Source of the DNA: an uncultured Bacillota bacterium
GTDB taxonomy: Bacteria; Bacillota; Clostridia; Christensenellales; UBA1242
Reading direction: 5' to 3'
Assembly: GCA_946499835.1 (NCBI GenBank)
Contig: CAMMTJ010000002.1
Span: forward strand, 79,368 to 143,367
DNA length: 64,000 bases
The position numbers and the translations under genes are program-made. Within the stretch, counting starts at the first letter, position 1. Each line of letters starts with the position of its first letter. Shown piece by piece: positions 2,630-60,133 of the stretch. Under the pieces are notes generated by a model. The model saw nothing but the letters and a program-made list of their open reading frames with translations. It searched no databases and was not told the DNA's origin.

Positions 2630-5188
2630 TTATTCTTCTTCATTTGAAGAAGTTTGACTTTGTTCTGATGCAACGCTTTCTTCAAAGAGTTTGTGCTCAT
2701 CAGATATTTCTTGTTCGCTCTCATCAGAAGTTTGTTCTTCTTTTTGAGCAAGTGCAACGCCTACAATTTTTGCATCATCTCTCAGTTTCATAACGCGCAC
2801 ACCTTGGCTTACACGACTGAGACTGCTTATCTGTGCGATAGGAGTCCTGATAATGACACCATTGTCTGCAATAAGCATAATATCATCTTCTTCTACCGAT
2901 TGTCTGAGTGCAACGAGTTTGCCTGTTTTTTCATTAAACACACCAGCCTTAACTCCCATGCCACCACGAGATTGCAAACGATATTCTTCAATATTTGAGC
3001 GTTTACCATAACCATTTTCACTTATTGTCACGATTTGTGTGTTTGGTTTGACAATTGTCATATCCACGATATAGTCATCTTTGCCAAGTTTCATGCTACG
3101 CACACCTTGACTTGTTCTGCCAACTTCACGCACATCTTTTTCTGAGAAGCGAATGGCCTTTCCTTCATGAGATGCCACAAGGATATCATCTTCACCACTT
3201 GAAACTTCAACGCCAATAAGTTCATCATTTTCAAGCAAATGAATTGCAATCTTTCCAACCTTGCGAATAAGTGCAAATTCAGAAAGAGGAGTTTTCTTGA
3301 TAAGTCCATATTTTGTCGCCATGATAAGATTTCCAGTTGCGTCATCTTTTCTTGGAATGATAGTTGTTACCTTTTCCTCAGGGGACAGTTGAAGCAGGTT
3401 GATGATTGCTCGTCCTTTTGCCGTTCTTTGTGCCTCTGGGACTTCATAGGCCTTTATGCAATAAACTTTGCCAAGATTTGTGAAGAAGAGAAGGTCGTCA
3501 TGAGTGCAGGTGATAAACATTGTCTTGACAAAATCTTCTTCCTTTGTCTTGTGAGCAGTCACGCCGACACCACCTCTGTTTTGCGCCTTATATTCACTTG
3601 TTGACATGCGTTTGATATATCCTTGGCTTGTCATAGAGATGACAACATCTTCTTTTTCGATAAGATCGGCAATGTCAATGCCACCAGTTTCAAGTGAAAT
3701 TTCTGTTTTACGTTTGTCGCCATAAGTTTGTTTAATTGTTTCAAAGCCTTCACGCAAAATTTGAAGCACACGTTCAGGTTTTGCAATGATGTCTTTGTAA
3801 TCAGCGATTTTTGCGTCAAGTTCACGGAGTTCTTCATTGAGTTTTTCAACTTCCAAACTTGTCAGTTTTGAAAGTTTCATTTCAAGAATGGCATTGGCTT
3901 GAATTTCATCAAGTTCAAAGTTTTGAGTCAGTTTCACAACAGCATCTGCTCTATCTTCGGCAGATTTTATGATGCGAATGACTTCATCAATATTTGCAAG
4001 TGCAATGACAAGACCTTTGACAATATGTTCTCTCTCTTCTGCTTTGGCAAGGTCAAACTTGGTTTTGCGGACAAGCACCTCTTTTTGATGTTCAAGATAA
4101 TAATAGAGCATCTCTTTCAGATTGAGTATTCTTGGTTGGTTGTCAACAAGGGCAAGAAAGATTATGCCTGAGCCCTTTTGAAGTTGAGTATGCTTGTAAA
4201 GAGAATTGAGCACAACTTGTGCATTGAAATCTTTTTTGACGTCAACGACAACGCGCATACCTTGTCTGTCAGATTCTTCTTTGATGTCACTGATACCTTC
4301 AAGACGTTTGTTTTTGACCATATCTGCCATTTGCACAATAAATTGTGCCTTGTTGACTTGATATGGAAGTTCTGTGATAACAATTCTGCTCTTTCCGTTT
4401 GAAAGTTCTTCAATTTCAGCACGGCCTCTCACAACAATTCCGCCACGTCCAGTTTTGTAGGCGTGTTTGATAGCCGTTCTGCCCATGATAATTCCGCCTG
4501 TTGGGAAATCTGGTGCAGGGATGATTTTGATAAGGTCATCAATATCTATCTCAGGATTGTCAATCATGGCTTGAAGTCCATTCAAAACCTCAGTCAAGTT
4601 GTGAGGTGGGATGTTTGTTGCCATTCCGACAGCAATACCATCTGCGCCATTGATAAGCAGGTTTGGTATCTTTGCAGGAAGGACGACAGGTTGTTCTTCT
4701 GTGTTATCAAAGTTTGGATAGAAATCAACAGTTTCTTTATCGATATCTTCAAGCATAAGTCCTGCGATTTTTGAAAGACGGGCTTCTGTGTAACGCATAG
4801 CAGCAGGAGGGTCGCCATCGACAGAACCGAAGTTGCCTTGTCCGTCTATGAGTGGATAACGAATTGAGAAGTCTTGTGCAAGACGAACCATAGCGTCATA
4901 GACTGAACGGTCGCCGTGTGGGTGATACTTACCCATAACATCACCAACAATTCTGGCACATTTTTTTGTAGGTTTGTCATAGAAGTTGTTCATTTCGCCC
5001 ATAGCATACAAGATTCTGCGGTGGACTGGTTTGAGTCCATCACGCACATCTGGTATAGCACGGGAAACATTGACAGCCATTGCATAAGATATGAACGACT
5101 TTTTGAGGTTGTCCACAGTGTCAACTTTTTCAATTTTTGTCTCTTGGAAGATTTCTTCCAAAGACTTTTTGCTTTCATGCTTTTCCAT
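2630..5188 (-). CDS. gyrA: DNA gyrase subunit A
   Basis: 852 aa. [19 protein letters not shown], active-site region AAMRYTE, GyrA-box-like QNRGGVG, acidic C-terminal tail. Immediately downstream of gyrB. Confidence 0.96.
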
Positions 5189-8759: not shown

Positions 8760-8974
8760 ACTTTATCTTGTGCGGAAAAGTATAAAATATCATTTTTGTA
8801 TTGTTTTTCACTCTGTCAAGCAATTATAAATAAAAAGACTAGGAAGACCTAGCCTTTTTTTTGATAATACAAGAGAATAGCAAAACCCCTTTTCACCTCC
8901 TTTTATTGGTGTCAAAATTGGTGTCAAAAGGCAAATTAAAAAGTTTGAAAATCGCTACATCCCCTTATTTACAA

Positions 8975-9308
8975 TGGTTGTGGGAGTTGGCTGATTCCAC
9001 CTCCCGAACCGAGGTTATATCTTCGTTGCCACTTCGATATAACGCGAAGTAATAAAAAAAAGTTGGAACTATGCCAACTTTTACTTTTTTGGTTGCGGGA
9101 GTTTATCCTAAACCACTCCCGAACCAAGGTTATATCTTCGTTGCCACTTCGATATAACGCGAAGTAATAAAAAAAAGTTGGAACTATGCCAACTTTTACT
9201 TTTTTGGTTGCGGGAGTTTATCCTAAACCACTCCCGAACCAAGGTTATATCTTCGTTGCCACTTCGATATAACCCGAATAAAAAAAGCCCATTCAGGGCT
9301 AATTCTCT
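8975..9308. repeat. Tandem 115-bp repeat (3 copies), each seeded by a copy of the tRNA-fMet 3' end
   Basis: Unit starts at 8975, 9090 and 9205. Each begins TGGTTG(T/C)GGGAGTT, the reverse complement of the ..AACTCCCGCAACCA 3' end of the adjacent tRNA. Units at 9090 and 9205 are identical for about 85 nt. Conserved hairpins: GGTTGCGGGAGT/ACTCCCGAACC and GTTATATC/GATATAAC. The first two units end in AAAAGTTGG-n7-CCAACTTTT with flanking A and T runs. Confidence 0.9.
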
Positions 9309-9385
9309 TGGTTGCGGGAGTTGGATTTGAACCAACGACCTTCGGGTTATGAGCCCGACGAGCTTCCGGACTGCTCTATCCCGCG
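9309..9385 (-). tRNA. Initiator tRNA-Met (anticodon CAT)
   Basis: 77 nt on the minus strand: CGCGGGA...GCTCGTCGGGCTCATAACCCGAAGGTCG...TCCCGCAACCA. Shows the C1xA72 mismatch, three G-C pairs closing the anticodon stem, and an encoded CCA. Close resemblance to E. coli tRNA-fMet as recalled from memory. Confidence 0.9.
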
Positions 9386-9410: not shown

Positions 9411-9439
9411 AGTATATGCTCATAACTTGCGTTTGTCAA
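9411..9439 (-). promoter_or_regulatory. Sigma-A type promoter for tRNA-fMet
   Basis: On the minus strand, TTGACA (9439-9434), a 17-nt spacer, then TATACT (9416-9411), about 25 nt upstream of the tRNA 5' end. Confidence 0.7.
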
Positions 9440-49825: not shown

Positions 49826-49994
49826 TCGTCACAAACGTCGCTCATACAAAGTTTTGGCAAACTTGTGCCCATTCGCTTGTTTGCTCCTCTTCCCAAAAAT
49901 CTTATGATTTTCGGGAGCCCTATTTTGAGGGGTTCGACTCTTCTCGGTTGAATATGTAACAAAAAAACGGAGCACATTTACTCCGTCATTCTCT
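49826..49994. repeat. tRNA-Glu-linked conserved element, copy 1
   Basis: The first roughly 135 nt match 59888-60022 with about 5 mismatches by hand alignment. Ends in the tRNA terminator hairpin (CGGAGCA..ACTCCG). Confidence 0.85.
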
Positions 49995-59866: not shown

Positions 59867-59887
59867 TGGTAGCCTCAAGGGGAATCG
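59867..59887 (-). repeat. Orphan 21-nt copy of the tRNA-Glu 3' end (att-like direct repeat)
   Basis: TGGTAGCCTCAAGGGGAATCG is identical to 60059-60079 of the intact tRNA-Glu(CTC) gene. It is preceded by the same TTCTCT flank seen at the other tRNA 3' ends. Confidence 0.9.
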
Positions 59888-60058
59888 TCGTCACAAACAT
59901 CGCTCATGCAAAGTTTTGACAAACTTGTGCCCATTCGCTTGTTTGCTCCTCTTCCCAAAAATCTTATGATTTTCGGGAGCCCTATTTTGAGGGGTTCGAT
60001 TCTTCTCGGTTGAATATGTAATAAAAAAACGGAGCATGCTGACTCCGCAAAATTGCTT
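59888..60058. repeat. tRNA-Glu-linked conserved element, copy 2
   Basis: See copy 1. Bracketed by the 21-nt tRNA 3'-end repeat on the left and the intact tRNA on the right. Confidence 0.85.
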
Positions 60059-60133
60059 TGGTAGCCTCAAGGGGAATCGAACCCCTGATTCAGCCGTGAG
60101 AGGGCTGCGTCTTAACCGCTTGACCATGAGGCC
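60059..60133 (-). tRNA. tRNA-Glu (anticodon CTC)
   Basis: GGCCTCATGGTCAAGCGGTTAAGACGCAGCCCTCTCACGGCTG...GGGGTTCGATTCCCCTTGAGGCTACCA. CCA is encoded. Confidence 0.88.

Follow-up and report, generated by a model that had tools for sequence, protein, structure and literature searches.

What are the three short, tandemly arranged units that adjoin the initiator transfer RNA (tRNA) gene, tRNA-fMet, of an uncultured gut Bacillota bacterium (Clostridia) from the Christensenellales lineage UBA1242, and how did they come to lie there? The units fill positions 8975-9308 (115, 115 and 104 bp) of the 64-kb stretch analyzed here (contig CAMMTJ010000002.1 of assembly GCA_946499835.1, positions 79,368 to 143,367), which is referred to as the window in the following. 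Judging from alignments and covariance searches, each unit is best described as a terminator followed by a 5'-truncated pseudo-tRNA-fMet (psi). The array as a whole is read here, tentatively and with slightly less than even confidence, as a set of partial tRNA repeats of the attachment-site (att) type that mark a recombination hot spot 3' of tRNA-fMet. Its periodicity is pronounced, as Tandem Repeats Finder returns 2.5 copies of a period of 115 with 97% matches over 9001-9286. In addition, the plus-strand version of the tRNA 3' end, TGGTTGCGGGAGTT, occurs in the window only at 8975 (one mismatch), 9090, 9205 and 9309, i. e. four times in register, while none of 100 shuffled sequences gives four matches. 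These last 14-16 nucleotides (nt) of the tRNA form the 3' end of every unit on the tRNA strand and constitute the core of the repeat, which carries a single substitution in unit 3 (ACTCCCACAACCA). An earlier sequence-only reading had described three head-to-tail 115-bp units and the four in-register copies of the tRNA end; the copies and the tandem trio abutting the tRNA are confirmed, whereas the proximal unit turns out to measure 104 bp and to carry a different terminator. Along the tRNA strand, the promoter and the tRNA are followed by terminator A with psi1, by terminator B with psi2, by a second terminator B with psi3 and by the flank (Table 1), with the promoter of the tRNA gene being the only one that a promoter scan detects upstream of the array on this strand. 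The tRNA itself displays the initiator hallmarks that can be read from its sequence, namely a mismatch of C1 with A72 and an anticodon stem containing three G-C pairs (GGG/CCC).

The psi portion is homologous to tRNA positions ~27-76, with the anticodon replaced by a 10-76-nt quasi-palindromic insert that turns the anticodon stem into a long hairpin. Formally, it can be written as GGGCT-AT[ATC...GAT]AT-AACC. An alignment of 13 distinct units from nine lineages (A2) shows the common architecture TTCGGG-N-TATATC, variable insert and GATATAAYC, followed by a segment that can be aligned with the tRNA from the variable loop to CCA. A covariance model built from psi units only (R1) scores these units with 47-87 bits and also matches all genuine tRNA-fMet genes with 23-24 bits across their last 53 nt, which extend from the anticodon stem to CCA. 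Likewise, pairwise alignments starting from ATAACC in the anticodon loop yield 29-39 identical columns out of 42 between the 3' part of psi and the tRNA. By both measures, the likeness to the tRNA, which had been thought to be confined to 14-16 nt, spans the 3' ~53 nt. Further tRNA-derived pieces are the left arm TTCGGGTTAT, the exact reverse complement of the tRNA segment ATAACCCGAA (inverted pair I12), and the T-arm stem GTTGG/CCAAC with a 7-nt loop in terminator B (repeat family D4). A terminal block of 11-32 nt is identical to the local tRNA in every lineage and follows the local acceptor bases, with CCTCCGC in L012 and CCCCGC in L170. Folding places two hairpins in each psi (z-scores of -4.2 to -5.8, terminators counted in): hairpin 2, which corresponds to GGTTATATC...GATATAACC, and hairpin 3, which corresponds to TGGTTCGGGAGT-loop-ACTCCCG(C)AACCA, and the 3' end of psi reads …CGCAACCA. 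None of the units resembles a functional tRNA gene, given that ARAGORN calls only the gene at 9309-9385 and that the Rfam tRNA model gives no match in 8975-9308 even at E <= 5. All lack the 7-nt anticodon loop, and the 5' half is missing from most. At gathering score, Rfam 15 matches nothing but the tRNA genes, and permissive scans give matches at chance level only.

Relatives were gathered via metG (66-78% amino-acid identity), since the 223-amino-acid protein encoded next to the array has only two homologue clusters; beyond this, the proximity of metG, which the sequence-only reading had pointed out, has no bearing on the findings. Related units come after tRNA-fMet in at least eight lineages, among them L012, L013/L015, L018, L019, L165, L170 and L161, and are absent from at least five (L011, L017, L174, L176 and L178), where a zeta-toxin-like gene comes directly after the tRNA. 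Different species share only ~35 nt and never whole units; the terminators are species-specific, and hairpin 3 varies among lineages. Hairpin 2 is conserved across species while the surrounding intergenic DNA is unalignable, and psi of different species have derived characters in common that are absent from the tRNA, i. e. the ATC...GAT insert and CCTCGTTTTCGG. Therefore, the psi units form a lineage of their own. This bears on the simplest account of the array, according to which the units simply result from tandem duplication and decay of a tRNA-fMet-plus-terminator block, without site-specific recombination, and have no function. This account is improbable, as the same remodelled hairpin and the same derived characters in at least eight lineages are not expected from random decay; moreover, the 5' half is gone from nearly all units, and a tRNA-Glu island elsewhere in the window has the same partial-tRNA-bounded layout with unrelated content (see below). 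Yet, it speaks for duplication of the block that the units are tRNA-derived throughout, even in the T-arm-like terminator B, that unit 1 of L018 retains an acceptor 5' strand at the spacing of the tRNA, that the terminator after the last psi of L019 is a diverged copy of the unit terminator, and that the direct repeat extends through the terminator in L015 and L165. Of the original proposal of decayed tandem tRNA-Met genes, the descent from tRNA-fMet thus survives, while random decay does not. A known counterpart is the metZWV locus of E. coli, a tandem of initiator-tRNA genes with recombination-driven changes in copy number. The array resembles it in being composed of tandem tRNA-fMet-derived units whose copy number would shift by recombination between them. 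Unlike in metZWV, only the first copy is a tRNA; all further copies are devoid of anticodon and 5' half and carry their own terminators.

Within the DNA searched, the units are restricted to tRNA-fMet. In 384 kb of related loci, all R1 matches of at least 47 bits lie directly after tRNA-fMet, and neither R1 nor the hairpin-2 motif, used as a regular expression, finds anything away from this gene in the window and these loci combined (~450 kb). The competing idea, named in the sequence-only reading, of a generic dispersed repeat such as a repetitive extragenic palindromic (REP) sequence, a bacterial interspersed mosaic element (BIME) or a miniature inverted-repeat transposable element (MITE) was tested and discarded, because the 64-kb window holds no further copies and R1 has none off tRNA-fMet in the 384 kb. 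Beyond the relatives, the hairpin-2 pattern gave 98 matches in JGI metagenomes, all attributable to chance and none with a tRNA core. The unit patterns gave none in IMG/VR, bar one chance match in GC-rich DNA, and two units compared with phage and plasmid collections by blastn remained without a match. A literature search returned only the general concept of partial tRNAs left behind by successive integrations.

How labile the array is becomes apparent from contigs that encode an exactly identical 223-amino-acid neighbouring protein. A comparison of copy number between strains, which had been proposed along with the first description, reveals 0, 1, 2 or 3 units in differing order within this one species, although the absolute numbers are uncertain because the comparison loci are short-read metagenome assemblies, many of them broken at the locus. 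The types of junction (tRNA to terminator A, B, C or flank) should be reliable, since the shared core is only 14-16 nt long. L003 has no unit, and the CCA of its tRNA directly abuts the flank TTGTAAATAA, representing an empty site. A single unit (terminator A, loop Y) is found in L007, A then B in L002, B then A in L001, L004 and L006, and C then B in L005, where C is a third type of terminator; the window has A, B, B. The related lineage L154 possesses one A unit. In another species, L165 carries one unit between 60-nt direct repeats (core, terminator and TTCGGGTTAT), and this unit is absent from L164, L166 and L169. As a separate observation, tRNA-fMet, the units and 14 nt of the flank are all missing from L159 (positions 3700-3730), which belongs to the same species as the window, so that the promoter is joined directly to ATGTAGCGATTTTC. 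Either the deletion is real, in which case another initiator tRNA gene would have to exist elsewhere, or the assembly is at fault.

The variable order (A-B versus B-A), the three terminator types and the differing tRNA-to-terminator junctions might also point toward active, non-autonomous cassettes, which we regard as distinctly unlikely. Here, hairpin 2 together with the 3' end of the tRNA would constitute a folded site in single-stranded form, analogous to attC, and an unlinked recombinase would insert the units at the 3' end of tRNA-fMet, as the analogue of attI, to build up an integron-like non-coding array. Assembler confusion is an unlikely source of these junctions because the sequence on either side of the core is unique. 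The conserved hairpins, whose loops vary and which contain a base that is mismatched or extrahelical, as well as a patchy distribution yet conserved sequence, as in mobile DNA, would also fit, and so would the type 2 module (see below), which resides in islands bounded by the fMet core (L013 and L018) and, in opposite orientation, in the window island bounded by the tRNA-Glu core. Integron arrays and CALINs, the latter being clusters of attC sites without an integrase, likewise consist of head-to-tail cassettes at one fixed site that vary among strains in number and order. Their cassettes, too, end in imperfect palindromes that form hairpins, with one base left unpaired and a loop that varies. 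However, the cassettes here are non-coding and anchored at a tRNA 3' end instead of attI, no IntI-type integrase with attI was found in the window or the related loci, and, to our knowledge, integrons are not known in Firmicutes. An integron attC site was rejected as its R-box order is wrong: instead of the consensus RYYYAAC...GTTRRRY, hairpin 3 (TGGTT...AACCA) presents GTT...AAC, the reverse order, on both strands, and the RRR/YYY positions do not fit. Against cassettes in general speak the failure to find a recombinase, the repeat length of 11-32 nt, which is unlike a fixed target duplication, and the fact that species have only ~35 nt rather than whole units in common. Moreover, homologous recombination starting from a longer ancestral array can give all polymorphisms, and, as far as the sequences tell, every strain state can be derived from such an array by deletion or unequal crossing-over.

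The reading of the array as att-type repeats at a hot spot draws on a familiar phenomenon. tRNA genes are classic landing sites of mobile DNA, and the partial copies left there are normally treated as inert scars; the sublocation classes of such integration sites were reportedly defined by Williams in 2002. The array shares several features with the attL/attR repeats of tyrosine integrases, i. e. an intact tRNA gene with at least one copy of its 3' part behind it, homology that begins in the anticodon loop as at the ends of tRNA-fMet prophages, a new terminator after the restored tRNA, and presence or absence depending on the strain. More specifically, every lineage has a direct repeat of the adjacent tRNA 3' segment (11-32 nt), and the repeats start at canonical sublocations, the anticodon loop in psi and the T loop in the tRNA-Glu repeat. 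Precise empty sites exist in L003 and, in the same manner, in L164, L166 and L169 as compared with L165, although deletion between the repeats would equally yield these. In addition, partial tRNA-fMet copies on IMG/VR viral contigs, many of them close to the end of a contig, have their start at CTCATAACC in the anticodon loop, 3 nt upstream of the start of psi homology (ATAACC). The lineage L161, in which at least six modules of a different type, each of ~108 nt and arranged in tandem, separate the tRNA from a psi whose 3' 42 nt match the tRNA at 38 of 42 positions, has what by analogy is a textbook attL...island...attR layout. Arrays of partial-tRNA repeats resulting from successive integrations have been described, for example, for tycheposon islands (bioRxiv 10.1101/2020.12.28.424599).

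In this scenario of att-type repeats, the founding event would have been a site-specific integration at tRNA-fMet of the classical anticodon-loop class by an integrase whose attP would carry TTCGGGNTAT…ATAACC. Such an integration would leave a partial tRNA copy downstream of the restored gene, with the element supplying the new terminator. Subsequently, recombination between the 3' end of the tRNA and those of psi may have amplified, shuffled and deleted units, conceivably via unequal crossing-over or deletion and possibly aided by an integrase acting in trans. The same recombination could keep the terminal block of psi identical to the tRNA. The units are probably not independent genes, because each of them lies behind a strong terminator and is without a promoter on the tRNA strand. 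Among the explanations offered by the sequence-only reading, scars of integration and excision hence fit best in view of the partial copies, their start in the anticodon loop, the empty site of L003 and the layout of L161, whereas integrase and element genes are missing.

Several points weigh against this hot-spot reading. Pfam searches of 20 open reading frames of the window reveal no integrase or recombinase, and the gene tables of ~25 loci list none beside the tRNA. No element genes were found, the 'islands' between the repeats comprise only 35-200 nt of non-coding DNA, and in contrast to integrase att repeats, the copies lie only 104-242 bp apart. A double-stranded circle of 104-115 bp would also be an unlikely integrase substrate in light of the stiffness of DNA. 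At the position of the crossover region, where an att scar should carry a 7-nt overlap, psi holds its 10-76-nt insert, and the hot-spot account does not explain this conserved insert at the anticodon position. Nor does a neutral scar predict the age and conservation of psi, which, unlike integrase att repeats, is an old conserved lineage of its own. In unit 1 of L018, GCGGGA is preserved at a distance of exactly 20 nt on the 5' side of the anticodon stem, which is the spacing of the tRNA and hints at descent from a complete gene copy. Furthermore, none of the strain differences requires an insertion, so that gain of units is not demonstrated, and contigs end at the locus, either at the tRNA or inside the array, in L008-L010, L156-L158 and L160, which adds to the uncertainty of the copy numbers.

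Alternatively, psi units might be functional, tRNA-derived structured RNAs that mimic the top half or the acceptor of tRNA-fMet and bear a long arm in place of the anticodon, a possibility that we consider unlikely. Transcription reading through from the strong promoter of the tRNA would produce these RNAs, and tRNA-processing enzymes would free them. Hairpin 2 occurs in at least eight lineages with its stem kept, while its loop ranges from 4 to 76 nt, which suits a folded single strand rather than a dimer site on duplex DNA. Two inner pairs of this hairpin are changed on both sides (GC/AU/UA and UA/CG; nine cells), a number that none of 500 shuffles reaches and of which slid controls fall far short. 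However, the covariation comes from few independent lineages, and template-switch 'correction' of a quasi-palindrome can mimic it without selection. In favor of an RNA on the tRNA-sense strand, the stem base contains G.U pairs in L013 and L165, where the opposite strand would give A.C. All units possess a stretch that is complementary to the 3' strand of the acceptor and changes in step with the sequence of the local tRNA (CGGGAG in the window, GCGGAG in L012 and GGGGA in L170), and in nearly every psi, CCA is followed at once by a terminator, as in the tRNA gene. A neighbouring type 2 module that resembles a genuine structured RNA, with nine compensatory pairs, lends further support. On the other hand, the promoter scan found no promoter for any unit, a strong terminator precedes each of them, and there is no Rfam match, to tRNA or otherwise, even at E <= 5. 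The scan did not call the weak plus-strand promoter that had been proposed, which has a spacer of 19 nt and lies in flank that is also present at the empty site. Moreover, the predicted helix of the window form pairs the CCA or leaves a 6-nt tail, while RNase P, the CCA-adding enzyme and synthetases use a 4-nt NCCA tail. The units are also dispensable, as they are missing from at least five lineages and from some strains. Hence, the idea of acceptor-mimic RNAs gains from the conserved, covarying hairpins and from the terminator after nearly every CCA, but suffers from the lack of promoters, the preceding terminators and the 6-nt tail. A comparison with the tRNA-like domain of transfer-messenger RNA, with Y RNA/YrlA and with viral 3' tRNA-like structures leads to a similar balance. 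All of them have an acceptor/T-like helix that ends in CCA, and tRNA-like non-coding RNAs may likewise have a long arm in place of the anticodon region; the psi RNA differs by the absence of an Rfam match and of a promoter, by the wrong 3' tail in the window form and by being predicted only.

The tRNA-fMet array is not the only one of its kind. In the window, tRNA-Glu(CTC) is followed by a 192-bp non-coding island (59867-60058) that ends in a 21-nt copy of the 3' end of this tRNA (59867-59887), starting in the T loop. The content and order of this island differ strongly among strains with an identical neighbouring peptidase gene (L183, L186, L187 and L191). It harbors the type 2 module, which is present in a second copy downstream of tRNA-Glu(TTC) and also within the tRNA-fMet arrays of L013 and L018, there in the other orientation. 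Related tandem modules that share the long hairpin of type 2 are found in L161 (9840-10450). The fold of the module is conserved, with three domains and, across three lineages, nine compensatory pairs; it includes a long-range stem (CAAAC/GTTTG), a terminal hairpin at its end, and a 10-bp hairpin, CCCCA(C/A)AAATC-loop-GATTT(G/T)CGGGG, which, upon opening of its top two pairs, presents an anticodon-like 7-nt loop, CU-NNN-GA. Rfam gives no match at gathering or permissive thresholds, and no promoter is obvious; the module is possibly an unknown small RNA. From the tRNA-Glu island and the fMet arrays together, it follows that structured modules bounded by partial tRNAs are general in this organism and not a peculiarity of a single locus. 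A more far-reaching proposal would be that tRNA 3' ends in this clade anchor arrays of short structured non-coding cassettes (psi and type 2), each equipped with a terminator, that are either inserted or shuffled by a recombinase or expressed as RNAs. This proposal, which we deem doubtful, would involve an unlinked recombinase acting on folded hairpins, i. e. an integron-like system made from tRNA parts, or tRNA-derived regulatory or decoy RNAs.

A number of other systems were considered and rejected for the psi units. The ends of IS200/IS605-type insertion sequences do not fit, as left and right hairpins are unrelated, and neither does a casposon- or CRISPR-like target duplication, in view of the repeat length varying between 11 and 32 nt. 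A rolling-circle nick site was suggested by ACTTGATAT in L170, which resembles the CTTG/ATA site of phiX174/pC194, but other lineages have GAAGATAT instead, and no Rep gene is linked to the units. The 11-6-11 arrangement of an Xer/dif site is absent. RNA repeats of type III toxin-antitoxin systems (ToxI-like) are short and uninterrupted, share one promoter and are followed by a terminator and an endoRNase toxin gene, while every unit here contains a terminator; the downstream 190-amino-acid gene has no Pfam match, is KwaA-like according to a precomputed table and possesses its own promoter.

Taken together, what would be taken for psi 'scars' is, on the basis of the comparisons above, a conserved family with a remodelled anticodon hairpin that varies in number and order and lies beside other structured modules, and the finding looks like a tRNA-associated recombination hot spot, not like an established new RNA. 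If the units are merely scars, they provide a useful strain marker and a warning to assemblers and annotators regarding repeats at tRNA-fMet in this clade. If they indeed serve as recombination substrates or RNAs, they would represent a new route for the reuse of tRNA sequence in mobile or regulatory elements.

Table 1. Features of the tRNA-fMet array and of the tRNA-Glu loci, in window positions.
Feature	Position	Strand	Basis or remark
tRNA-Met(CAT), intact initiator gene	9309-9385	minus	ARAGORN; Rfam tRNA 64.2 bits
Sigma-70-type promoter of the tRNA gene	9411-9439	minus	TTGACA-17-TATACT, 11/12 consensus; promoter scan
Unit 1, 104 nt	9205-9308	minus	R1 covariance model 87.2 bits
Unit 1 terminator A	stem 9286-9300	minus	followed by T-run
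psi1 hairpin 2	9243-9273	minus	
psi1 hairpin 3	9205-9241	minus	X-type loop; 3' end = AACTCCCGCAACCA
Unit 2, 115 nt	9090-9204	minus	R1 81.9 bits
Unit 2 terminator B	stem 9173-9197	minus	GTTGG-7 nt-CCAAC, resembling tRNA T arm
psi2 hairpin 2	9128-9158	minus	
psi2 hairpin 3	9090-9126	minus	X-type loop
Unit 3, 115 nt	8975-9089	minus	R1 77.3 bits
Unit 3 terminator B	stem 9058-9082	minus	
psi3 hairpin 2	9013-9043	minus	
psi3 hairpin 3	8975-9011	minus	Y-type loop
Conserved chromosomal flank, TTGTAAATAAGGGGATGTAGCGATTTTC...	8860-8974	minus	strain comparison
tRNA-Glu(CTC)	60059-60133	minus	
Type 2 module, ~125 nt	about 59889-60012	plus	within tRNA-Glu(CTC) island
Type 2 module, second copy	49827-49950	plus	downstream of tRNA-Glu(TTC)

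The DNA next to the array is variable as well. The zeta-toxin-like gene mentioned above encodes a zeta-toxin/AAA_33-like P-loop kinase, lies on the same strand as tRNA-fMet directly downstream of it and is listed also for L164-L169; a partner antitoxin gene is not evident. Elements encoding a Rep protein (PF02407 Viral_Rep plus superfamily-3 helicase) are present in L003 (6969-12672) and L159 (3842-6080), both of which are devoid of psi units. They are located just after the terminator ~190 bp downstream of the tRNA-fMet site, where they replace the KwaA-like gene, and the element of L003 additionally encodes a Zot-like nucleoside triphosphatase. The stretch between the array and the KwaA-like gene contains small insertions in L005 (7028-8542) and L154 (2203-2943) that encode an HTH_3 regulator and proteins of unknown function. 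In the window, a perfect 12-nt tandem duplication (ATTGGTGTCAAA twice, 8905-8929) lies in the flank that separates the array from the promoter of the KwaA-like gene. It varies by strain (TTGACACC versus TTGCTCGCC) and is possibly an operator.

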